Positions 3,313 through 30,267 of a DNA stretch of 30,267 bases are shown here, piece by piece. Positions within the stretch are counted from its first letter, which is position 1, and the number at the start of each line of letters is the position of its first letter. This DNA is from a virus. Location: UHGV virus genome UHGV-0229465; one strand, 5' to 3'. Under the pieces are notes generated by a model, which saw only the letters and a list, made by a program, of their open reading frames with translations, had not been told where the DNA came from and searched no databases. The translations under genes were made by a program, and so were the position numbers.

Positions 3313-3810
3313 ATGAAAGCAATCACGCTTTTTAATACACCGATCCGTGTTGATGAATCAGGAATGATCTGCCTCACTGATATGTGGAAAGCCAGTGGTA
3401 AAAGTGAATCTGAATCTCCGTACCACTACCTGCGAAACAAGCAGACCAAAGAGTTCTTAGCCGAGCTGGAGAAAAACCACGAATCTGTGGTTTTTACTGA
3501 GCGCGGTGTACACGGTGGAACATATGGCGGGAAGTTTGTTGCTTACGATTATGCGGCTTGGTTAAACCCCGGGTTCAAGTACGCGGCCTATAAAGTCCTC
3601 GATGACTACTTCACCGGAGAGCTTCATCATCGGAACAGCTTAAGTGCGCAGCTCAACATGAAATGTCATGAGTTTGACCAGAAGAAAGACATGGCGAGCT
3701 TCTGCGGACAAGGGCTGGCGGCATGGCGCTATACGAAGCCAGTGTTGGTCGCTGAGATTAACTCCCTGGCTAACCAGCTGCAGATTACGATCCCCGGGCT
3801 TCCGGGATGA
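3313..3810 (+). CDS. KilA-N domain protein (antirepressor-like N-terminal DNA-binding domain)
   Basis: Start MKAITLFNTPIRV...; the ...AYDYAAWLNPGFKYAAYKVLDDYF segment resembles the KilA-N signature; start at 3313 chosen over the track start at 3277. Confidence 0.55.
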   Translation: MKAITLFNTPIRVDESGMICLTDMWKASGKSESESPYHYLRNKQTKEFLAELEKNHESVVFTERGVHGGTYGGKFVAYDYAAWLNPGFKYAAYKVLDDYFTGELHHRNSLSAQLNMKCHEFDQKKDMASFCGQGLAAWRYTKPVLVAEINSLANQLQITIPGLPG

Positions 3811-4371: not shown

Positions 4372-4652
4372 AGCGGACAGACCGCCCTTATAAGCCGCAG
4401 TCATGATGCTGCCCCGAGTCTCAATGAGAGCCAGATGCAGGTCCAAACTGCAATACGCGCTGGTGAGGGTTAACGAAGAAAAAGGCGTACCGGTACTCCA
4501 GAGCGATCGCCAGTCGCTCACCGGTTAGAGGTGAGGGATTCATGAGATACCCCTGACTACAGACTCAAGGGCATGAGCGCGGCCACTGCGAGAGTGTGGT
4601 TTATAACCGCTAAAAAATTTATACTCCATGGGCATTGAGCATGGAGGGTTGA

Positions 4653-5060
4653 ATGAAACTAAATATCGATTATTTAAAGTCGTTCTTAGCTTTATTTTTA
4701 GAATCTGAAAATCCATTTGTTTCGACAGATGAGTTGGCTAAAGCCGGTTACGATATTTCAGATGCTGTTGGATATTTTCACTACACCCAGCTAATTGAAA
4801 AAGGATTCGTGAGTACCTTGGATCTCAGGACGGGCAACCCAAAAGAGTTGGGATTAGTATTTTCTACAAATAGCATCACAAGCTGGTCTACTAACATCAG
4901 GCTAACTTCAAGCGGATATGATTTTGCATTGTCATTAAGTAAGCCGGATGTTTTTGAAAGATTGAAAGAGTTGAGCAATGAACCCATCGGGGTTTTGAAG
5001 GATGTTGGTGTTGAATTGCTTAAGTCTTATGCCAAGAAGAAGCTTGGTTTATCTGATTAG
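4653..5060 (+). CDS. Hypothetical protein encoded by an AT-rich moron
   Basis: 135-aa ORF with GGAGGG RBS, much lower GC than flanks, own terminator downstream; no family recognised. Confidence 0.6.
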   Translation: MKLNIDYLKSFLALFLESENPFVSTDELAKAGYDISDAVGYFHYTQLIEKGFVSTLDLRTGNPKELGLVFSTNSITSWSTNIRLTSSGYDFALSLSKPDVFERLKELSNEPIGVLKDVGVELLKSYAKKKLGLSD

Positions 5061-5088
5061 TATTACTTTCAAATAAAATGAAGTAGGA

Positions 5089-5119
5089 AGCCACAGGCAT
5101 GTGCCGGTGGCTTTTTTTT
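5089..5119 (+). terminator. Intrinsic terminator after the moron ORF
   Basis: Near-perfect hairpin agccacaggc/gccggtggct followed by TTTTTTTT. Confidence 0.65.
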
Positions 5120-5131
5120 ATTGGAGCAAAT

Positions 5132-5482
5132 ATGCCACCCCGGACACCTAAAGCTTGCCGTGTTCGCGGCTGCCGCTCTACAACAACAGACCCATCAGGT
5201 TACTGCGAGTCCCACAAAGGCGAAGGCTGGAAATCCTACAAATCGGGACAATCCCGGCATCAGCGCGGCTACGGTTCGAAGTGGGATGTTATCCGTGAAC
5301 GAGTGCTGAAGCGTGACAAAGGCCTGTGTCAGTTGTGTTTGCGTGCTGGTGTGGTGCGCGAGGCGAAAACCGTTGACCACATCATCCCTAAAGCGCATGG
5401 CGGCACTGATGCCGAAAGTAATCTGCAGAGCCTGTGCTGGCCGTGTCATAAGGCGAAGACGGCCCGTGAATGGTTGAAGTAA
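5132..5482 (+). CDS. HNH endonuclease, packaging-associated
   Basis: Zn-finger Cys pairs and ...VDHIIPKAHGGTDAESNLQSLCWPCHKAKT HNH motif; directly upstream of terS/terL as in HK97-like phages; GGAG RBS. Confidence 0.8.
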   Translation: MPPRTPKACRVRGCRSTTTDPSGYCESHKGEGWKSYKSGQSRHQRGYGSKWDVIRERVLKRDKGLCQLCLRAGVVREAKTVDHIIPKAHGGTDAESNLQSLCWPCHKAKTAREWLK

Positions 5483-15418: not shown

Positions 15419-15567
15419 CGGCTGAATACCTCACTGATCGCTTCTTTGACTGCGCCAGCTACTGGCGCATTAATCCTTTCGAATTGCTGAATATGCCGAT
15501 CAGTGAAATTCCCTTACTGGTCAGTCAGGCAAACAGGATAGAGCAGGAGAAACGCACACATGGCTGA
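15149..15567 (+). CDS. Tail assembly chaperone, -1 frameshift-extended (GT-like) form
   Basis: -1 frame ORF 15385-15567 has no RBS of its own, overlaps the 3' end of the chaperone and ends overlapping the tape-measure start (ATGGCTGA). Confidence 0.6.
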
Positions 15568-17392
15568 ATTTGAGCTTAAGGCGTTGATCACCGGTGTCGA
15601 CAGGCTTTCTCCCGCGCTGTCGAAAATGCAAAAGAAAATCCGGGGATTTAAACGCCAGGCGGAAGAAGCGTCACAGGGTGGGCTGGCGCTTGGTGGCGGA
15701 CTGGCAGCGGGTCTGACGCTTTCCCTGAAATCTTATGCCGATCAGGAAAACGCCGCCACCGGGCTGAAAGTCGCCATGATGGATGCGAACGGCGAGGTTG
15801 GAAAGAGCTTTCAGGACATCAATAAACTGGCTATTGGCCTGGGTAACCAGCTACCCGGTACAACGGCTGATTTCCAGAACATGATGCAGATGCTGGTGCG
15901 TCAGGGGATCCCGGCAGAAAACATTCTGGGTTGTGTGGGTAAAGCGACAGCTTATCTTGCGGTACAACTGAAAAAAACACCGGAAGCGGCTGCCGAGTTT
16001 GCCGCAAAGATGCAGGATGCTACCGGAACGGCGTCAGAAGACATGATGGGGCTGTTCGACACTATCCAGAAGGCGTTTTATCTGGGCGTTGACGATACCA
16101 ACATGTTGTCCTTCTTCACTAAAACCAGTTCTGTTCTGAAGATGGTGAACAAGGATGGTCTTCAGGCTGCACAGAGCCTTGCCCCCATCAGCGTCATGAT
16201 GGATCAGATGGGGATGAACGGGGAGGCGGCAGGTAATGCCCTGCGAAAAGTTATCCAGTCAGGATTAAGTGTTAAGAAAATCAGGGACGTCAATAAAGTC
16301 ATGGCCCGCCAGAAACTCGGGGTACAGCTCGATTTTACTGACGGCAAAGGAAGTTTTGGCGGTCTTGATAACATGTTTAAGCAACTGGCAAAGTTGCGAA
16401 AACTGACTGACGTTAAGCGAACTAATGTACTTAAGGCAATATTTGGTGATGATGCCGAAACCATTCAGGTGGTCAATGCGCTGATCGATAAAGGAAAGGA
16501 TGGTTACGATCAGATCCAGCAGAAGATGAATAAACAGGCCAGCCTGAATAAACGTGTTCAGGCACAGCTTGGTACGTTGTCCAACCTGTGGGAGGCAATG
16601 ACGGGGACCGCAACTAACGGCCTTGCAGCTATTGGCGGCGCATTTTCTGGTGACGCTAAAAATATCACGCAATGGCTGGGGGAGTTGGGGGAGAAATTCA
16701 CGAAGTTTGCGGATCAAAATCCCCGGGTTATTCGCGGCGTCGTCGGGCTTGCTGCCGGTCTTGCGATTCTGAAACTGGGATTGATGGGCGTGGGCAGTGC
16801 CATCAGTATCGTCAGCAGGATCATGTCGATGACGCCGATTGGCATGATTGCGACGGCGATTGCCCTGGCTGCGGGATTAATTATCACTAACTGGGATGTT
16901 GTTGGACCTTATTTCAAGAAGCTCTGGGAAACCATTGGTCCTTATTTTGAGGTTGGCTGGGAACTCCTTAAGAAAGTTTTTGCCTGGTCGCCGCTGGGGA
17001 TGGTGATCAATAACTGGGGACCGGTTGTTAAGTGGTTTCAGGATATGTGGGACAAGCTGAAGCCAATTATTGAGTGGTTTACTGACAGTTCCGGTGACAC
17101 GGTCGATGCCATTAACTCTGCGCAGTGGGGCGCAGGTGCCTATGATGCTTATGGGACGGGAATACCGGCGTGGGGATACACACCTTATCCGGCGGTGGAT
17201 CCGGCTCAGTCAAACAACGCCTCCGGTGCCACAGGTCCGAATCCCTTCATGATTAACAAAGCTTCTGCGCCAAAAGTTGATGGTGAGATCAAGGTATCTT
17301 TTGTGAATATGCCACCAGGTATGCGGGTTATGGAAACGCGATCCAGCGGTATTGATGTCAGCCATGATGTTGGCTATACGCGGTTCAGGTAG
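15560..17392 (+). CDS. Tail tape measure protein
   Basis: 610 aa, Ala/Gly-rich helical protein with C-terminal hydrophobic segments; follows the chaperone frameshift pair. Confidence 0.85.
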   Translation: MAEFELKALITGVDRLSPALSKMQKKIRGFKRQAEEASQGGLALGGGLAAGLTLSLKSYADQENAATGLKVAMMDANGEVGKSFQDINKLAIGLGNQLPGTTADFQNMMQMLVRQGIPAENILGCVGKATAYLAVQLKKTPEAAAEFAAKMQDATGTASEDMMGLFDTIQKAFYLGVDDTNMLSFFTKTSSVLKMVNKDGLQAAQSLAPISVMMDQMGMNGEAAGNALRKVIQSGLSVKKIRDVNKVMARQKLGVQLDFTDGKGSFGGLDNMFKQLAKLRKLTDVKRTNVLKAIFGDDAETIQVVNALIDKGKDGYDQIQQKMNKQASLNKRVQAQLGTLSNLWEAMTGTATNGLAAIGGAFSGDAKNITQWLGELGEKFTKFADQNPRVIRGVVGLAAGLAILKLGLMGVGSAISIVSRIMSMTPIGMIATAIALAAGLIITNWDVVGPYFKKLWETIGPYFEVGWELLKKVFAWSPLGMVINNWGPVVKWFQDMWDKLKPIIEWFTDSSGDTVDAINSAQWGAGAYDAYGTGIPAWGYTPYPAVDPAQSNNASGATGPNPFMINKASAPKVDGEIKVSFVNMPPGMRVMETRSSGIDVSHDVGYTRFR

Positions 17393-17491
17393 TGTACAAA
17401 ATGATTAATGTGTTTTTGTCTGGCATAATTTGGGTTTTCAACTTTAAGTAGTTAATATAATCACTCCTTACAAATGATTGAAGGGATGATT

Positions 17492-17986
17492 ATGCGTATC
17501 TTTGTGTTTTTTATATCTGCACTTTTATCTTTTAACTTGGCAGCGGAAGAGTGTAAGTTCAGCTTTAATGAGTCAGAATTAATCTCTTCTATAGGTATTG
17601 CACCAGTTAAGCAAGAGATAGTAAAGGATGAAGGAATAACTAAGCGTCAATATGAATTCAGGAGAGAATTGTCTTTTGAAGAAATGCTTGGCGATGATGC
17701 TGATGAAAAATATGAGCCGCAGTTTTATATATCTGTTTATAATCCATCATGTCCACAAAAGGTTATTATTTGGTTTTTCAAAGACAATAAAAACACACAA
17801 GCTTTAAGTAATGAGGTCCTTGCTGGTAGAGCATTCAAGTATTTAACTGGTGTTAATGAAAGTATTTTTGAAAATAAAATGAAAAAGTTTTCAAAGGTAC
17901 AGTCATTTGAATCCTTTGATGAAAGGACGGACTCTAAATTTATAAAGAGTGGTAATGTTTATTCCATTGATGTTCAACTCAGATAG
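17492..17986 (+). CDS. Secreted hypothetical protein (signal peptide), AT-rich moron inside the tail cluster
   Basis: AAGGGA RBS 6 nt upstream of ATG at 17492 (track start 17474); signal peptide MRIFVFFISALLSFNLA; very low GC; TATAAT -10 element upstream; T-rich hairpin region downstream. Confidence 0.55.
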   Translation: MRIFVFFISALLSFNLAAEECKFSFNESELISSIGIAPVKQEIVKDEGITKRQYEFRRELSFEEMLGDDADEKYEPQFYISVYNPSCPQKVIIWFFKDNKNTQALSNEVLAGRAFKYLTGVNESIFENKMKKFSKVQSFESFDERTDSKFIKSGNVYSIDVQLR

Positions 17987-18076
17987 TAATTGAAAATATT
18001 AGAACCCCGCTACATCTTCTGCGATGTAAATAACTGACAAAGCAGATTTGGCGGGTTTTTTGTATCCGGAGTTTAT

Positions 18077-19405
18077 ATGACGTGGAAAGACAGGCTTCAG
18101 GATGCGTCATTTCGCGGCGTACCGTTTAAGGTTGAAGAAGAAAGTGCGGGAACCGGTCGCCGTGTGGAAACACACGAATATCCGAACCGCGACAAGCCCT
18201 ATACCGAAGATCTGGGAAAAGTCACTTTCCGCCCGTCCATCACAGCTTATGTGGTGGGAGATGACTGCTTTGACCAGCGCGATCGCCTGATTGACGCGCT
18301 GAATAAACCCGGTCCCGGCACGCTTGTCCACCCGACATATGGTGAGCTGAAAGTCTGTGTTGACGGGGAAGTTCGGGTCAGCACATCGAAGAGTGAAGGG
18401 CGTATTGTCCGCTTTGACCTGAAGTTTGTCGAAGCAGGAGAACTCTCTTACCCCACATCAGGTGCGGCGACGGCGCAGACGCTGATGTCATCCTGTTCTG
18501 CACTGGATGACTGCATCAGTGACAGCTTCAGCGGTTTCAGTATCGATGGTGTGGCGGATTTCGTGCAGAACGACGTTATCGGTAATGCCAGCATAATGCT
18601 GGGGTATGTTTCTGATGCGATGAAAGTGGTGGATTCTGCCGTATCGGATGCCGCCAGGCTGTTGCAGGGGGATATCTCGGTACTTCTGCCGCCGCCATCG
18701 TCAGGCAAAAATTTCGTTGAGCAGGTGCAGAAAATGTGGCGTACCGGGAAACGCCTTTATGGTAACGCCAGCGACCTGGTCACCATGATCAAAACGCTTT
18801 CCGGTGTCAGCCTCGGCAGCGATCTGCAACCGCGCGGCGTCTGGAAAACGGACAGTAAAACCACCGCCACGGCGACGCAGCAGCGTAACGTGGTTGCCAG
18901 CACCCTTCGTACGACCGCAATCAGCGAAGCGGCGTATGCCGTCACCCGATTGCCTGCGCCAACAACTTCCGCGGTGATGCAGAATGCCGCAGTGGGGCAG
19001 GCAACAACACCCGTGCAGAGCACTGGCTGGCCTTCCGTCACGCATCCGGCACTGAACAATGCACCGGCGGTGAAAAACACGGTTGACCTGCCGACGTGGG
19101 AAGAACTGACCGACATTCGCGACACACTGAATACGGCAATTGATAAGGAGTTGTCCCGTACAACCAGCGATGCGCTGTTTCTGGCGCTGCGCCGGGTGAA
19201 AGCAGATCTGAATGCGGATATCAACACGCGCCTTGAACAGTCTGCACGGATCATTCAGCGCACACCGGATGAGGTTTTACCCGCGCTGGTGCTGGCGGCG
19301 ACCTGGTTTGATAACGCGGCGCGTGACGCGGACATTATCCGGCGTAATGCCATTACGCATCCCGGCTTTGTGCCGGTGATCCCTCTGAAGGTGCCAGTGC
19401 AATGA
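18077..19405 (+). CDS. DNA circulation protein (Mu gpN-like)
   Basis: 442 aa; N-terminus MTWKDRLQDASFRGVPFKVEEES... matches the DNA-circulation N-terminal signature. Confidence 0.8.
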   Translation: MTWKDRLQDASFRGVPFKVEEESAGTGRRVETHEYPNRDKPYTEDLGKVTFRPSITAYVVGDDCFDQRDRLIDALNKPGPGTLVHPTYGELKVCVDGEVRVSTSKSEGRIVRFDLKFVEAGELSYPTSGAATAQTLMSSCSALDDCISDSFSGFSIDGVADFVQNDVIGNASIMLGYVSDAMKVVDSAVSDAARLLQGDISVLLPPPSSGKNFVEQVQKMWRTGKRLYGNASDLVTMIKTLSGVSLGSDLQPRGVWKTDSKTTATATQQRNVVASTLRTTAISEAAYAVTRLPAPTTSAVMQNAAVGQATTPVQSTGWPSVTHPALNNAPAVKNTVDLPTWEELTDIRDTLNTAIDKELSRTTSDALFLALRRVKADLNADINTRLEQSARIIQRTPDEVLPALVLAATWFDNAARDADIIRRNAITHPGFVPVIPLKVPVQ

Positions 19406-23077: not shown

Positions 23078-23725
23078 ATGCATCGTATAGACACGAAAAC
23101 CGCGCAGAAGGATAAGTTCGGCGCGGGTAAGAACGGTTTTACCCGTGGTAACCCCCAGACCGGCACGCCAGCCACCGATCTGGATGATGACTACTTTGAC
23201 ATGTTGCAGGAGGAGCTTTGCAGCGTGGTGGAGGCATCCGGTGCCAGCCTGGAGAAGGGGCGGCACGACCAGTTGCTTACCGCGCTTCGTGCGCTGCTGT
23301 TAAGTCGCAAGAATCCGTTTGGCGATATCAAATCGGATGGCACGGTGAAAACAGCTCTCGAAAACCTTGGTTTGGGAGAAGCGGCAAAGAGGAATGTGGG
23401 GACAGGAGAAAATCAGGTACCGGATATGAACAGCTTTGGTAACTCATTGACCGCCAATGGATACCAGAAATTACCTGGGGGGATGATTATTCAATGGGGG
23501 AGTTTTTCTGTCTCACCAACCGGAGGAAGTGTTGGAACAGTTGATATAACATTACCTGTAGCTTTCCCTGCTGCTTGTCGTTCGGTAAACGCTCTTATTT
23601 CAACTAATGATCCTTCTGCCCGTTCTGTGGGCTTTGATATTGGAAGTACCAACAGAACTAAAATCAGATTTACTTACACTTCTGCTACAACAAATTCAAT
23701 TTACTGGATTGCTGTGGGGTATTAA
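23078..23725 (+). CDS. Tail fibre protein: constant N-terminus fused to the currently expressed variable C-terminus (Sv)
   Basis: GGAG RBS; crossover site lies inside the gene at codons ..LENLGLGE..; downstream part is AT-richer than the constant part. Confidence 0.8.
23355..23380. repeat. Invertase crossover site (gix/pix/hix-like), left
   Basis: ctctcgaaaaccttggtttgggagaa is an imperfect 26-bp palindrome resembling the recalled hix/gix consensus; inverted copy at 25213-25238 shares the 14-bp ttggtttgggagaa. Confidence 0.7.
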
Positions 23726-23727
23726 CT

Positions 23728-24159
23728 ATGGAAAAGACATATTATTTTAATCCCTCTGATTCGGGATTTTATATTTCACCAGATAGCCAAACCATTCCTG
23801 AGAACGCTACGAAAATAAACTTTACTATTTATTCTGAGTTCGCAGGAGTTGCATGGCCTGATGGTAAAATACTTGGTTCAGATAAAAATGGTTTTCCAGC
23901 ATGGCAGGATGCGCCACCACTTACCAGCGAAGAATTAATCTCAATCGCTGAATCAAATAAACAGCGATTAGTTAATCAGGCCAACGAATACATGAACAGT
24001 AAACAATGGCCTGGTAAAGCGGCGATTGGTCGTCTGAAAGGTGAGGAACTGGCGCAATATAATTTGTGGCTGGATTATCTGGACGCACTGGAACTGGTCG
24101 ATACTTCCAGTGCGCCAGATATTGAATGGCCTACTCCTCCGGCAGTTCAGGCCAGATGA
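23728..24159 (+). CDS. Tail fibre assembly protein (paired with the expressed fibre tip)
   Basis: 143 aa immediately after the fibre gene; C-terminus ..LWLDYLDALELVDTSSAPDIEWP typical of tail-fibre assembly proteins. Confidence 0.75.
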   Translation: MEKTYYFNPSDSGFYISPDSQTIPENATKINFTIYSEFAGVAWPDGKILGSDKNGFPAWQDAPPLTSEELISIAESNKQRLVNQANEYMNSKQWPGKAAIGRLKGEELAQYNLWLDYLDALELVDTSSAPDIEWPTPPAVQAR

Positions 24160-24733: not shown

Positions 24734-25266
24734 TATGCAGCCCTCACAATATAGTTAAAAGCGACATTTCGTGGGCGTGTTTCATTCGCACCTGCAGGTT
24801 TAGTCGTTGCCGCAACAACACCACCCTCTGTAATAGCCGGGTTGGGAATTGGGTAATTATCGAAGTCAATGGCTGGAGACAGGGGCGTGATTTGTTTTAA
24901 AATCGTGGTGCCTGTAAAACTTCCCAGAGTCTGGTCGTTAGTTCGTGAAGTCCAGATTCCCCAATAGTGGTTATGACTGACAATCGCACCGTCCTGAAGC
25001 GTTAATAATCCCCTTCCGTTATCCACTCCACGTCCGTCATCCCAGCCACGAATAAACTCACCGCGTAAATCAGGTAATTTATTTGTCGGATAAGCCTTTG
25101 CCAGTTCCGGGTATTCTTCAGCAGAAAAAGCTGCTCCGTTGCATTTCAGCCAGCCTGTTGGCGGAGTGGCTGAAGGCCACGGAACAGGCACACCAACGGG
25201 TAATGCTGAGCCTTCTCCCAAACCAACGTTTATGAAAATGTAGAAATAACGAGCAAATGGCATCAT
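24733..25266 (-). CDS. Alternative tail-fibre variable C-terminal cassette (Sv'), silent in current orientation
   Basis: - strand ORF with receptor-binding-tip motifs (..LPDLRGEFIRGWDDGRGVDNGRG..); its 5' end contains the right crossover site encoding ..INVGLGEG.., in frame with the constant fibre part after inversion. Confidence 0.7.
   Translation of the reverse strand: MMPFARYFYIFINVGLGEGSALPVGVPVPWPSATPPTGWLKCNGAAFSAEEYPELAKAYPTNKLPDLRGEFIRGWDDGRGVDNGRGLLTLQDGAIVSHNHYWGIWTSRTNDQTLGSFTGTTILKQITPLSPAIDFDNYPIPNPAITEGGVVAATTKPAGANETRPRNVAFNYIVRAA
25213..25238. repeat. Invertase crossover site, right
   Basis: ttctcccaaaccaacgtttatgaaaa; reverse complement matches the left site over its right half; 55 bp upstream of the invertase start. 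Confidence 0.7.
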
Positions 25267-25292
25267 TCCTGCTTTTGTCAGGGAGATCTACC

Positions 25293-25631
25293 ATGCTTAT
25301 TGGCTATGTACGTGTGTCAACAAATGACCAGAACACAGATCTACAACGTAATGCGCTGAACTGTGCAGGATGCGAGCTGATTTTTGAAGACAAGATAAGC
25401 GGTACAAAGTCCGAAAGGCCTGGACTGAAAAAACTGCTCAGGACATTATCGGCAGGTGATACGCTGGTGGTCTGGAAACTGGACCGACTGGGGCGCAGTA
25501 TGCGGCATCTTGTCGTGCTGGTGGACGAAGATTTAGAGCATGAGTTAATTAATGGCGGTTTGTCCCACTATTGTGGTTGGTATCCCCATAGAACAGGGCA
25601 AGATATAGTTGTTCATCATGTTCACTCATAA
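25293..25631 (+). pseudogene. Serine DNA invertase (Pin/Gin/Hin/Cin family), truncated: catalytic N-terminus only
   Basis: GGGAG RBS; MLIGYVRVSTNDQNTDLQRNAL...LVVWKLDRLGRSM matches recalled Gin/Pin N-terminus with catalytic Ser; similarity is lost after ~residue 85 and the ORF stops at 112 aa (family ~185-190 aa), where AT-rich DNA begins. Confidence 0.7.
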
Positions 25632-26031
25632 GCAGAACTTCGGTGCTTGGCGTTATATTGAACCTTCTGAGGGATTCTGAGGATGAGTGGAATGTCGCGT
25701 TCTGATTCATCAGTAAGTAGGGAAAGATAGACTTTATGCGTCATTGACGGTGAAAGCGGCTATACATAGAAACTACCGACCAGCATCAGCCTGAAAATAT
25801 AGGCAGATAGAAAAAGTGGTCCGCACTTGCAACTAATGTTAAACCGTTTGTAGATATTGTGCTTCGGGTACAATTCTGTCCTATCGTTGCACTTAGCTAA
25901 CTACTCTATATTTAATGCATTGTAATAAAGATATAAAAGTTGTAGTGTTGAGGGTCCAATTGCACATAAGAGTGCAAATTTGAGTTTGGCCGTAGGCTAA
26001 TGATGAGAGTATAAGTTGGATTGGGTGCACT

Positions 26032-27129
26032 ATGAAGAAAAAAATAGCAGATCTACTAGCCGTTAAAACAAATATATTCGAAGTGTTCATTGTTGCGGTA
26101 TTAATTGCCTTGGGCGTAAATATACTGTCATCAGGCGTTGTTGGTTATTTTAACTTGTCATTTTTGAAAATGATTGTTGTTGGTGCGCTACTAATAATTT
26201 TAGGTGCCACAATCTTTCTGCGTAACGCCTATCCTATGAATAATGGGAAATATGATTTTGAGGGGGTTGTGTGTTTAGACAATGAAAAAAAAGAGTTGAT
26301 ATCAATTGAAGGCTACGATTTTTCCGAAGAGGTTAGCCGTTACCTAAAAGGATTATGCGCGGAAAATAAGGCTATTCATAAATCATGGACTGAGGGGCCA
26401 ATTGGTTATGCTTTTGATTTTAAAGGGAAGGGGATAAATAGCAAAAAAATGAAAGCAAATGCACTATTTATCGAGGCGATTGAGTATTATGTTTTAAGAA
26501 AACTTGCTCTTCATTTAAGTAGCTATTTTAATGATGATGAATCTTTTTCCGATGATTATTTGGTTAAACTAGATAGGAAAAGTATTCCTGATGTTCTTAT
26601 GGGGAATAGATTTATTGATACTTTTTCTAGAGCTATGGATGAACGTGAGCAATTTATGGATTATAGTTCTTTACCATCTATAGGTAAAGTTGTATATGCA
26701 TATGGCAATGGAGGCGCAATTTTTGACCATTTTGAAATAGTTCTTCCCAAAAGTAGTTCGCTCACAAGAGAGAGCGACTCTAGTATAAGTATTGTTACTA
26801 AAAGATTTAAGATTAATTATCGCCCTGTGTTCGAGGGATTCGGGGCTAATCTACCAATGAAATTTGGAAATCTTTATTTGGGTAGAGAGTTTAATTCATT
26901 TTCAACTTATTCAGTAGGTTTGGTAGTTACAGTGGATTTTAATGCCAAGTCTTTATTAACAACTAAGGGATGGGAATATTATTGGTGGCTTGATTCGTTT
27001 TTGGGAGAATTGGAACAATCATTTTCTAAAAAAATGTTTTTATCTAAAATATCTTGGGAGCAAAATGCAGCAATGTTTCTTATGCTTGAAAATAAGAGTA
27101 AAATGCAGCACAAGAGAGAGAATTTTTAG
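26032..27129 (+). CDS. Membrane-anchored hypothetical protein (two N-terminal TM helices, ~300-aa cytoplasmic domain)
   Basis: 365-aa ORF in very AT-rich DNA; promoter-like TTGGCC-18 bp-TATAAG upstream; Lys-rich N-terminus then two hydrophobic helices; no recognisable catalytic motif. Confidence 0.6.
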   Translation: MKKKIADLLAVKTNIFEVFIVAVLIALGVNILSSGVVGYFNLSFLKMIVVGALLIILGATIFLRNAYPMNNGKYDFEGVVCLDNEKKELISIEGYDFSEEVSRYLKGLCAENKAIHKSWTEGPIGYAFDFKGKGINSKKMKANALFIEAIEYYVLRKLALHLSSYFNDDESFSDDYLVKLDRKSIPDVLMGNRFIDTFSRAMDEREQFMDYSSLPSIGKVVYAYGNGGAIFDHFEIVLPKSSSLTRESDSSISIVTKRFKINYRPVFEGFGANLPMKFGNLYLGREFNSFSTYSVGLVVTVDFNAKSLLTTKGWEYYWWLDSFLGELEQSFSKKMFLSKISWEQNAAMFLMLENKSKMQHKRENF

Positions 27130-28074
27130 ACAAATAAAAGCAGTCTAAATATCTACATACAGGAAAATGTTCGCATCTGTCTAATGGTGAACAATAGTGG
27201 CTGTAAAAGCTGTAATTTGGGTTCGCTATGTGCTGCATGCATCGGTTGGGCTCACTGCTTATAACAGACATTAATTTTATGACAGAAAGACATTCATGCT
27301 AGTTGGAATATGCATAAAACTCCCTCTACACTGTGTTTGTATACAGTATTATTTTACTGTGCAAATAAGCAGCATTATTGTTTTCTCTGTTCAAGTAAAA
27401 AGAAATGGATACACTCACAAAGATTTTGATGGTGGCACGATAAGTGTCTTCGTTTTTATGAGAGCAGTTGTTGTGGCTTCATCACTAGTACTTAGCATCA
27501 AGACTGATTTCTTGCTGTTGGTTCAAGTACTTTATCCCATAAAAGCCCACATCTGTGGGCTTTCAAGTCACTAGGGCACCGCGGCTCCTTTGCGTATCTT
27601 TTTTTGTATCCTCACCGTCTGGTCGGTGTCCTGCTTTGGCTGCTAACTTGCTGTTTTTGTTGGAATTATCCTTACGCCACCCAATCATGATTGGTGGAGC
27701 TGGCGGGAGTTGAAACCGCAGGCACGTCGTATGCAAGAACGTGCTGCGGTTGGCTGGTGAACTTCCAATAGTGCGAGTATTGAATGATTTCCAGCTGTTA
27801 TAGATTTTACGTATTTTTTGTATGAGAGGATTTGCATCTCCTCCCACCGATCCTCCATGACTTTACTCCACTGTCTATAGGGCTGCTGTGTGCTAGAAAC
27901 GGACATTTTGGTCAACTGAGGGCATGGAAACTTGTTCAATAAATAACGTATAATCAATTGAAAATAAAATGAAATAATTGTAATATCAAAATTCAAAGCC
28001 CGTAGTGAGTATGATTATCTATTCTTAATTTCAACCTCTTAATTCTAAATAAGTTAGACAAATCGGAATGGCAG

Positions 28075-28716
28075 ATGAAAATTAAGTTAACACCAATCTG
28101 GTTATGGATAAAACAATATCAACATCCCCTTAGAGTATTGGGGGGGATTTTTTTCGGGGCCGCTTTGATAGCAGCTTTTTTTTGGATATCAGGATTTGAT
28201 ATAGAACCTATCGCATTCGCTCTGGGAATGCTTAGTTCATTGTTCTTAGCCAGCCCATCGGTAGCAGAATATTTTTTACCAGAACGTAAACCTGTCAGAG
28301 ATATGACATATGAGGAAATCTTAAATTTCATACCCAAAACTGAACCATCTCAAGATTGGCATGGGATTTCAAGGGAATGGGCTAGCGAACGATTCCTTAA
28401 AGAAGACCCACGTCTTCGTTTTCGAGCCAAGTTCATTGATGAAGGAATTCAATGTGAAAATTTTATAGAAGATTGGGCTAACAATCATCCAGATCCCAGA
28501 GCAACTGGATATTGGTATGAGCTTTATTACGACGGAGCATTCCTAGACAGGTTTTTATTGGTATCTGTGGATGGCGGTAGAGCGGATATTCCTCCACCAA
28601 AATTACAAACTAAAGAAATTAGCTTACTCAATTATCATGTTGCGAAAATACATGACACCTCTGGCACGTTAGATGAGTATATTAAACGATCTGGTTTAAC
28701 TATTGCAAAAACATAA
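28075..28716 (+). CDS. Membrane-anchored hypothetical protein (two TM helices, ~150-aa C-terminal domain)
   Basis: 213-aa ORF, AT-rich; helices at ~20-40 and ~45-63; convergent with the next gene. Confidence 0.55.
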   Translation: MKIKLTPIWLWIKQYQHPLRVLGGIFFGAALIAAFFWISGFDIEPIAFALGMLSSLFLASPSVAEYFLPERKPVRDMTYEEILNFIPKTEPSQDWHGISREWASERFLKEDPRLRFRAKFIDEGIQCENFIEDWANNHPDPRATGYWYELYYDGAFLDRFLLVSVDGGRADIPPPKLQTKEISLLNYHVAKIHDTSGTLDEYIKRSGLTIAKT

Positions 28717-28788
28717 TAAGTAACTATTCATTTTTGTCCTGAGCGGGAGGATTAAAACCTCCGCTCTCCGATTCATCACTACAGAGTA

Positions 28789-29547
28789 TTAACATTCATG
28801 ATGCTTAATTTCCAGATCGGAAATTGCAATCATTCTTATTTCTTTCAATGCACTATCAATTGCTAATCTTATTCTTTGCCCATAATCATCTGGTTCTTCA
28901 TAATCCAGTGGAGACGGTTCTAAGCCAATATTTTCGACTAACTCCTCTAATTTTATAGTTACATCAGTATTCAAAAGAATTGCTTTTGTTATTAATATTT
29001 CAGTTAACGATATCATTGCAATGCTTAATTTTTGTTGTAATTCTTTGTTTTTAGTTTGGACGTCTTTATCATTCATTGAGTTCTCAATATCTGCTTGAGC
29101 CTGCTGAATTTCTTGGTAAAATTGTTTTTCTTGCTCTTCATTAAAATATGGCTGGTAACTGCTTGCAATCCATCCTGGAATCATATGAAGTTCAATTATA
29201 TGAAATTCATTGTCTGCCCATTTTTTAATTGCTAGCAATTGTGCATAGATGAATTCATACATATCATATTTTTTTTGCCAAATTTGTTGAGAGATCCATA
29301 TCTCAGATGTTATTTTTTTCTCTATATCTTTAATAGTAACTGTGTTTATAGATAATTGTTCCCGTAGGGTTTCGAAGTTAGAATTGGTTGCAGAAATTTT
29401 AGCCCATTCTGTAATTATTGAAACTAGGAAACTCATTGCTAGGGCTGCGATAACTACGGCGAGACTTAACCAGATAATTTCTGCTGTCGAGAAATTTGAT
29501 GACTGTAATGCCTTAATAAGATCAAGCAATTGCTTTTCTGTAAGCAC
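28789..29547 (-). CDS. Membrane-anchored hypothetical protein (one TM helix, helical/coiled-coil C-terminal domain)
   Basis: 252-aa ORF on - strand; GTG start with GGGGAG RBS; one hydrophobic helix near residues 22-46 then Glu/Gln/Lys-rich helical region. Confidence 0.55.
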   Translation of the reverse strand: MLTEKQLLDLIKALQSSNFSTAEIIWLSLAVVIAALAMSFLVSIITEWAKISATNSNFETLREQLSINTVTIKDIEKKITSEIWISQQIWQKKYDMYEFIYAQLLAIKKWADNEFHIIELHMIPGWIASSYQPYFNEEQEKQFYQEIQQAQADIENSMNDKDVQTKNKELQQKLSIAMISLTEILITKAILLNTDVTIKLEELVENIGLEPSPLDYEEPDDYGQRIRLAIDSALKEIRMIAISDLEIKHHEC

Positions 29548-29949
29548 AGGTTACTCCCCAAAAAATATTTGTTATGATTCAATTGATTACGCTAGGTTTT
29601 CTATTGTTCAAACAAAAAATAAAACACCACTGTACACCCATCAAAATTATATGGATAGATTCTTTATAGCAAAATTATGATCTGACAACATGATATGGTT
29701 CGAAGATGTTTTTATGGTAGAAAGGTATGCATGTAGGGTATAGGAGGTCGTGAAAGAAAAGAAGACTTCTGTACAGTTTGTCATCACGTTTATCTTCATC
29801 GGCTATGCAAGTCGTAATACAAGGTGGGACAAAACTGAGACACATAAGGCCTCACAATGGCTTGCAAGGCTTTACATGTTTTGATGTGGTGGGACGTGTG
29901 AGCGCAGTGTTGATGGGGTAATTCTTTGAATTAGAAACGGATTCTTATA

Positions 29950-29995
29950 ATTCGTAATGCGAAGGTCGTAGGTTCGACTCCTATTATCGGCACCA
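29950..29995 (+). other. Partial tRNA-Thr(CGU) (anticodon loop to CCA end) = prophage attachment core, attR
   Basis: attcgtaatgcgaaggtcgtaggttcgactcctattatcggcacca matches the recalled 3' portion of enterobacterial tRNA-Thr (T-arm GGTTCGACTCC, acceptor TATCGGCACCA); the 5' half is absent upstream and GC composition changes here. Confidence 0.75.
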
Positions 29996-30121
29996 TTAAA
30001 ATCAAAGAGTTACCCCATATTTAAATACACCACGTTTCCTCCTGTGCCGCATTTGTGCCATTGTAACCTTGGCAATTCATCAAAATACTGTTCTGACATC
30101 AGGCAGTGCAGGTGCAGCTAT

Positions 30122-30265
30122 TTAAACCAATTGCTGCCGCCATTCTTTGACGTAGTCAATCAGGGCGCGGAGCTTTGGTGCAATATTGCGACGCTGTGGG
30201 AAATACAGATAGAAGCCCGGAAATTGTGGAAGAAAGTCATCAAGCAGCGATACAAGCTTACCGCT
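30122..30265 (-). CDS. LysR-type transcriptional regulator, C-terminal fragment (chromosomal flank)
   Basis: - strand ORF open to the window edge, ending ...IAPKLRALIDYVKEWRQQLV*; typical LysR C-terminal character; outside the prophage. Confidence 0.45.
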   Translation of the reverse strand, partial: SGKLVSLLDDFLPQFPGFYLYFPQRRNIAPKLRALIDYVKEWRQQLV

Positions 30266-30267
30266 TT

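Follow-up and report, generated by a model that had tools for sequence, protein, structure and literature searches.

The virus genome UHGV-0229465 was analyzed as one stretch of 30,267 nucleotides (nt), referred to below as the window, and the analysis centered on a small gene, here called X, that lies within the tail operon. The window is a prophage in which a lambdoid-type head and lysis module, with HK97-type head genes and a Q antiterminator, is joined to a Mu-type contractile tail. Its nearest matches were Escherichia coli strain 181.1 (99.7% identity over the insert that carries X) and Escherichia phage SKA5 (95%). The tail genes follow the order sheath, tube, assembly chaperone, tape measure, DNA circularization (Mu gp43/N-like) and baseplate genes, with the insert placed between the tape measure and circularization genes. 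It is 684 nt long, with a guanine-cytosine (GC) content of 32%. An earlier note on this DNA had pointed to an adenine-thymine (AT)-rich open reading frame (ORF) at 17492-17986 between two GC-rich genes; it is present there, and has a GC content of 32% (0.27 at third codon positions, GC3) against 51% in the tape measure gene and 56.5% in the circularization gene. The ORF list held no minus-strand ORF of at least 50 amino acids (aa) in the insert, and no Rfam family matched the insert interval. The features of the locus are as follows.

15560-17392, plus strand: tail tape measure protein gene, 610 aa, the left border of the hotspot described below (ORF list; annotated as tape measure in the 99.7% identical genome and in SKA5; PF10145 in relatives)
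17393-17491, plus strand: AT-rich spacer of 99 nt with promoter-like hexamers and a Shine-Dalgarno site (read from the sequence; 97% identical in SKA5)
17492-17986, plus strand: gene X, 164-aa precursor of a predicted small periplasmic protein (PHROG 8976, AlphaFold2 model, selection analysis, conserved N-terminus)
18005-18061, plus strand: terminator-like element with the stem CCCCGC/GGCGGG, a loop insert of ~38 nt and then T6 (sequence and folding)
18077-19405, plus strand: DNA circularization (Mu gp43/N-like) gene, the right border of the hotspot (ORF list; annotation in the matching genomes; PF07157 in relatives)

Gene X is a real gene and is under purifying selection. An open frame of 164 codons would arise at the composition of the insert with a chance of ~2e-6 (our own arithmetic), and the ratio of nonsynonymous to synonymous substitution rates (dN/dS), calculated against SKA5, was 0.18 for X and 0.14 for the tape measure gene. 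The ORF runs from 17474 or 17492 to 17986 on the plus strand. The ATG at 17492 is the preferred start, because the sequence AAGGGA (17481-17486) lies 5 nt upstream and the Prokaryotic Genome Annotation Pipeline (PGAP) calls the same 164-aa product in the 99.7% identical genome.

Junction occupancy and distribution of the X family

Gene X is optional and dispensable, fixed in position, equipped with export signals and part of a hotspot. Cargo is exchanged repeatedly where the tape measure gene meets the circularization gene, a site bounded by conserved genes at which at least six unrelated cargo families occur. A composite junction query, consisting of 500 nt on each side of the insert, was compared with 5426 complete E. 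coli genomes and matched 1093 of them, 863 of these over at least 80% of its length. In a spread sample of 48 two-flank junctions, 31 spanned 1063 nt and were thus empty, with a 60-nt spacer, and most relatives with flanks ~95% identical had this empty form of the junction. The six cargo families are listed below; the genome counts refer to the 5426 genomes and to the gene anywhere in the genome, the slot having been confirmed in the sampled loci only.

X, 164 aa, plus strand: predicted Sec signal peptide, 85 genomes
bPH_1 PH-domain protein, 125 aa, plus strand: no N-terminal targeting, 28 genomes
OB-fold/tRNA_anti-like protein, 148 aa, minus strand: membrane anchor, 72 genomes
225-aa protein, plus strand: lipoprotein-type LLGGC, 55 genomes
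176-aa protein, plus strand: N-terminal transmembrane segment, 178 genomes
162-aa protein, plus strand: Sec signal peptide, 101 genomes

The alternative cargos all had GC contents of 34-42%. BLASTP detected no sequence similarity among the cargos, PADLOC gave no match for any of them, and an envelope-type N-terminal signal (signal peptide, lipobox or membrane anchor) was predicted in five of the six occupants. Kinship of X with the 176-aa cargo was considered and rejected: the inserts are 684 and 683 nt long, yet no BLASTP similarity was found. Cargo is probably exchanged by recombination in the conserved flanks.

An independent survey covered 74 IMG/VR loci with a circularization protein at least 98% identical to that of the window. 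The junction was empty in 38 of these and carried X in eight, the 176-aa protein in 18, the OB-fold protein in about six and the PH-domain protein in two. Two apparent extra cargo classes in this survey were rejected as artefacts, namely an apparently frameshifted tape measure gene (L090; L numbers denote the loci compared) and an insertion sequence (IS) element within the tape measure gene (L093). In the latter (IMG/VR UViG 2512047041_000011), transposase ORFs of 108 and 296 aa, presumably IS3-like, break the tape measure gene of a near-identical prophage upstream of position 3501. Both L090 and L093 look like decaying prophages.

The earlier note had regarded the junction as an unusual place for cargo, which does not agree with the range of alternative occupants among related E. 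coli prophages. It had rightly expected an optional insert, since comparison of related prophages showed X to be absent from most close relatives, as in the empty junctions of the sample. Nor is X a structural tail gene conserved without any compositional shift, the outcome that would have spoken against a moron; it is conserved, but always with a GC shift, and it is dispensable. With regard to the Hendrix/Juhala definition of a moron, X shows both presence/absence in close relatives and a deviant base composition.

The arrangement resembles the defence hotspots of P2/P4 prophages and satellites, in which unrelated accessory genes alternate at fixed positions between conserved core genes (Rousset 2022, as cited in PMC11364771). 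The junction described here is likewise a fixed site with conserved core borders, at which unrelated genes alternate among similar elements. Unlike the P2/P4 hotspots, it lies inside the tail operon of SfV-like prophages and holds single small genes, mostly of envelope type, for which PADLOC gave no match. In one Atlantibacter prophage (L007 7980-9778), two extra genes (506 aa, GC 0.50; 93 aa, GC 0.40), neither with a Pfam match, were found between the DNA-circularization and gpP baseplate genes, and the junction beside the hotspot may also accept cargo.

The X family is tiny: only 13 proteins passed E ≤ 0.001 among 1.84 billion cluster representatives, and a profile search of 5.8 billion clusters gave 20. 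All members whose record names an organism belong to the Enterobacterales. Wherever the context of a phage-borne homolog could be read, the slot was identical, with the tape measure gene on one side and the DNA_circ_N gene on the other. These loci, with identities to the window, were as follows.

Metagenomic loci L003-L006: X 60%; for L003, tape measure 79% and circularization 77%
Atlantibacter prophage L007: X 57%, tape measure 72%, circularization 68%
Yersinia ruckeri L016-L018: X 36%; for L016, tape measure 62% and circularization 59%
L021-L022: X 27%; for L021, tape measure 59% and circularization 45%
Isolated Pantoea phage AH07: X 42.5%

X diverges in parallel with the tail module but about twice as fast. 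X was AT-rich in every lineage examined, with a GC content of 0.32-0.40 vs. 0.47-0.59 for the neighboring genes. Since this low GC is kept across all lineages and in the same slot, the compositional island is old and maintained, and does not mark a recent insertion. Recent horizontal insertion of X, which the earlier note had implied, was thus rejected, homologs at 27-60% identity being locked to exactly the same position and diverging alongside the tail module. The only non-phage context of the family was a chromosomal homolog (L019 7001-7471 and L020 6657-7127) with 35% identity and a GC content of 0.37.

Predicted product and transcription signals of X

By inspection of the sequence, the X precursor begins with M-R, followed by a 12-residue hydrophobic core, a small-residue cleavage region N-L-A-A and then a conserved Cys21 (MRIFVFFISALLSFNLAA/EEC). 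The predicted signal peptide covers about residues 1-18 (17492-17545), leaving a mature part of ~146 aa with the conserved cysteines C21 and C87. The same layout of n-, h- and c-regions (M-[RK], hydrophobic core, small-x-small site) and exactly two cysteines in the mature part were seen in each of the 12 phage-borne homologs of full length, and both traits were retained even where the mature domain was at 27% identity. Such conservation points to cleavage of a Sec signal and to a disulfide formed in the periplasm, and X is probably a periplasmic protein with one disulfide, C21-C87. A lipoprotein reading was rejected in the absence of a lipobox: the sequence ...SFNLAAEEC places the cysteine 3-4 residues past the A-x-A-type site, and does so family-wide.

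An AlphaFold2 model of X, built from a 15-sequence alignment, had a predicted local distance difference test score (pLDDT) of 88.6 and a predicted template modeling score (pTM) of 0.80. In the model, seven strands and two long helices make up a compact α/β domain that corresponds to the mature part; the signal peptide is disordered. The invariant residues of the family were only P76, C87, A111, F139 and F150. As these are structural and none is of catalytic type, X was read as a binding protein rather than an enzyme, and it most likely acts by binding another protein.

X matched PHROG 8976 over its full length (residues 1-164 of 164; E 1.8e-104), a family with no assigned function, and had no match in Pfam, NCBIfam or PADLOC. 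Two observations of the earlier note were thus confirmed, namely the Sec-type signal peptide, whose pattern is kept throughout the full-length phage-borne homologs, and the failure to recognize a family. A sequence-profile search of the PDB gave nothing meaningful (best E 0.009, to an unrelated mitochondrial protein), Foldseek of the model against the PDB gave nothing below E 0.1, and a BFVD fold search found one remote relative, a gut siphovirus protein with an uninformative automatic name. Across Pfam, NCBIfam, PADLOC, PHROG and the PDB sequence and fold searches, no homology to a characterized exclusion or defence protein was found. Literature searches with the accessions, the PHROG and the tape measure/DNA-circulation hotspot found no paper describing the family or the hotspot.

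A strict sigma-70 scan of positions 16900-18400 found no promoter. By eye, a perfect TATAAT is located at 17456-17461, preceded by TTTTCA at 17435-17440 as the best -35 candidate, with a short 15-nt spacer, and an extended -10-like element, TGgCATAAT, at 17421-17429. A lone TATAAT in DNA of 32% GC is not beyond chance, and these promoter-like elements are weak evidence for a promoter. Their geometry was not conserved in L003 and L007, and in three lineages, Yersinia ruckeri (L016), L021 and the Pantoea phage AH07 (L026), X starts 10-16 nt past the tape measure stop, which leaves no room for an intergenic promoter.

A hairpin 3' of X (18005-18055), followed by T6, had a predicted folding energy of -19.8 kcal/mol (z -3.5). 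A GC-rich hairpin with a U-run was conserved downstream in all lineages, for example ACCCGC-UUCG-GCGGGU plus U7 at -11 kcal/mol in L003 (6510-6548), and empty junctions carried CCCAC-UUCG-GUGGG plus U6 at the same place. The hairpin is therefore an operon feature, independent of which cargo is present. The loop is a UUCG tetraloop in the other lineages compared (L003, L007, L016 and L010) and in empty junctions; that of the E. coli X allele has a ~38-nt insertion, itself structured. In a lysogen, the hairpin would stop transcripts begun upstream of X. A Q-type antiterminator is encoded upstream, so that late transcripts could read through. Of what the earlier note had said on transcription, the TATAAT itself stood, but its use as the sign of a promoter belonging to X did not, given the empty scan, the unconserved geometry and the scant spacer in three lineages; independent transcription of X found little support on the same grounds, together with the presence of the terminator-like hairpin at empty junctions.

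Proposed role of X and alternative explanations

The most likely of the readings considered is that X is a periplasmic binding protein that blocks the entry of superinfecting phages, which we hold tentatively and at somewhat less than an even chance. According to this proposal, X is an optional moron-type gene locked to the tape measure/DNA-circularization junction of SfV-like, Mu-type-tail prophages of Enterobacterales. Its product would be released into the periplasm after removal of a cleavable Sec signal, and the mature protein would fold into a compact α/β domain of ~146 residues with a C21-C87 disulfide. There it would intercept the penetration machinery of an incoming phage, whether the tape measure protein, the tail tip or spike, or a host factor that these use, and genome entry would be blocked, i.e., superinfection exclusion. 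In location X would then resemble T4 Spackle, and in target HK97 gp15 or T4 Imm. The parallel divergence of X and the tape measure gene would fit a tail-directed target, and plain linkage would explain it equally well.

Several known systems offer partial parallels. The gp15 gene of HK97, the original moron, lies beside the tape measure gene in the tail operon; it is expressed in the prophage state, and its product prevents genome entry in a way that depends on the tail of the incoming phage (Juhala 2000; Cumby 2012, as summarized in PMC3594210). Like gp15, X is small, optional, located in a late tail operon next to the tape measure gene, deviant in GC, absent from close relatives and predicted to be envelope-targeted. 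However, gp15 is a small inner-membrane protein related to YebO, encoded upstream of the tape measure gene in a siphovirus, whereas X is a predicted soluble periplasmic α/β protein of ~146 aa, encoded downstream of that gene in a Mu-type myovirus module and with no sequence relation to gp15. Prophage expression and exclusion have been shown for gp15; for X both are proposed.

The T4 Spackle (Sp) protein is small and periplasmic, with a cleaved signal and a disulfide, and it inhibits the gp5 tail lysozyme, acting on the tail tip of a contractile-tailed phage to stop penetration (PMC7677548). X shares with it a phage origin and small size, together with a predicted cleaved signal, periplasmic location and disulfide. 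Unlike X, Spackle is a 75-aa all-helical bundle expressed early by a virulent phage; X is about twice the size, α/β with seven strands in the model, and prophage-borne. Sequence and fold searches of the PDB gave no match of X to Spackle structures. Other envelope proteins that block DNA entry are T4 Imm and Ltp, the latter of which is directed at the tape measure protein. Binding to the tape measure protein has been described for Imm (bioRxiv 10.64898/2026.03.06.709160), and the Ltp of Streptococcus thermophilus phage TP-J34 is a surface lipoprotein involved in superinfection exclusion (PMC3952083). The likeness lies in the genetic linkage of X to, and its divergence with, the tape measure gene. 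Imm is an inner-membrane protein and Ltp a lipoprotein, whereas the mature part of X has neither a membrane anchor nor a lipobox. X also lacks the lipobox Cys at +1 that is required in the class of exclusion lipoproteins (Cor, Llp and Ltp). X is thus no member of the Spackle, gp15/YebO or lipoprotein exclusion families.

Some observations weigh against an entry-blocking role. Cleavage of the signal and the disulfide were inferred by inspection of the sequence only. Expression of X in the lysogen was likewise inferred and is not backed by the strict promoter scan, and the tight packing in three lineages suggests late-operon expression in these. The bPH_1 cargo has no export signal, so that the hotspot is not exclusively one of envelope proteins. 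The match of the OB-fold cargo to phrog_8545, labeled "superinfection exclusion Sie-like" (E 1.5e-49), counts in favor, but this label is a database annotation, and a literature search turned up no experiment behind it. Finally, the chromosomal homolog of X lacks a signal peptide and follows directly on the terminator of a gene for a pertactin-type autotransporter of 1079 aa.

A bolder form of the entry-blocking proposal is doubtful. It holds that X founds a new family of soluble periplasmic exclusion proteins directed against Mu-type tails, at the tape measure C-terminus or the tail tip, that at least six unrelated, uncharacterized entry blockers share the junction as their dedicated hotspot, and that the AT-richness, maintained throughout the history of the family, would be selected for silenced or low-level expression in the prophage state inside a late operon.

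Alternatively, X could be a lysogenic-conversion factor, a periplasmic or envelope protein of benefit to the host in stress tolerance, serum resistance, adhesion or colonization, like lambda Bor or Lom, and without any role directed at phages. The moron-like architecture and the predicted export of the product agree with this, as do the placement of the chromosomal homolog beside an autotransporter adhesin gene and the many poultry or extraintestinal isolates among the carrier strains listed. Tail-region morons with such roles are documented (PMC3594210). However, the family is nearly confined to one slot of one tail module, although its hosts range from E. coli to Yersinia ruckeri, for which the record gives only the bacterium, and to a Pantoea isolated from leaves of horse-chestnut, and X diverges in step with the tail genes, both of which fit a phage-directed role better. 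The chromosomal copy, moreover, has no signal peptide. We therefore consider a host-benefit role unlikely.

A role as a late periplasmic helper of the phage's own lytic cycle appears quite unlikely, and it overlaps with exclusion rather than opposing it. Late in infection, X would then mask or inactivate the receptor or entry route, sparing progeny from loss to debris or to cells already infected, or would modulate the envelope or lysis. Late receptor inactivation that spares progeny is exemplified by T5 Llp. In keeping with such a role, X lies within the late tail operon and is read in the same direction, directly behind the tape measure stop in AH07, L016 and L021, the upstream Q-type antiterminator could carry late transcripts past the hairpin, and the gene is kept in the isolated phage AH07. 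Yet X is dispensable in most near-identical prophages, the lysis cassette is complete without it, and the E. coli lineage has acquired the 99-nt AT-rich leader with -10-like elements.

It is very improbable that X is an unannotated structural or assembly component of the tail: deeply diverged lineages do carry it at one fixed place in the tail operon, but most close relatives with intact tail modules, the sampled O157 prophages among them, lack it, unrelated genes take its place (one lies on the opposite strand), its base composition stays foreign throughout, and its conserved Sec signal would remove it from the cytoplasm, where tails assemble. It is scarcely credible, too, that X is a passenger, decaying or selfish, that currently does nothing, for although the distribution is patchy and truncated database copies (partial proteins of 50-109 aa) exist, many of these short matches come from contigs of ~1-2 kb or are labeled partial, and the low dN/dS, the confident AlphaFold2 model and the retention of the full-length frame, signal peptide and both cysteines down to 27% identity speak for a maintained gene.

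Other features of the prophage and significance

Elsewhere in the window, a 20-nt inverted repeat (95% complementary; AAACCTTGGTTTGGGAGAAG) at 23362-23381 and 25212-25231 brackets alternative genes for the tail-fiber C-terminus and for assembly, which lie on opposite strands. The segment adjoins an ORF for a resolvase-type invertase (pinE by annotation in the matching genomes) and looks like a Gin/Pin-type invertible host-range segment. Its genes are:

23078-24159, plus strand: gene at the inverted-repeat segment
24131-25266, minus strand: gene at the inverted-repeat segment
25257-25631, plus strand: gene at the inverted-repeat segment

A second AT-rich block forms the end of the prophage (25600-30267, GC 0.31-0.42) and contains the following ORFs, none with a Pfam match:

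26032-27129: ORF of 365 aa
27296-27574: ORF
28075-28716: ORF with a weak PADLOC match to PDC-S50 (E 6e-4)
28789-29547, minus strand: ORF

A query of positions 25200-30267, which contains this block, was covered as a whole in only six of the 5426 E. coli genomes, and the block may be a further cargo or defence island. Dips in GC (0.40-0.45) were also present at 1201-1600 and 4401-5200, near the lysis/packaging region. The small ORFs within them (e.g., 1311-1553 and 4653-5060), for which PADLOC gave no match, may be additional small morons.

The kind of element seen here, an accessory envelope protein of a prophage in a late-operon hotspot, is already known; the family of X has no assigned function, and the literature searches found no description of the hotspot. 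Should X and its five slot-mates prove to be entry blockers, new superinfection-exclusion proteins of E. coli and related bacteria could be sought at a single compact junction that is easy to search. The 5426 complete genomes contained ~520 matches to the six cargo genes in total, a figure that assumes every match to lie at the junction. Superinfection-exclusion proteins affect host range in phage therapy and competition among prophages, and the cargo proteins, if the proposal is true, would serve as tools to dissect how Mu-type contractile tails cross the periplasm. More generally, an island of deviant composition within a phage operon may be old, since low GC was kept here while the protein diverged to 27% identity. 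The main value of the locus thus lies in a hotspot of uncharacterized candidate entry blockers and in AT-richness maintained over a long time.

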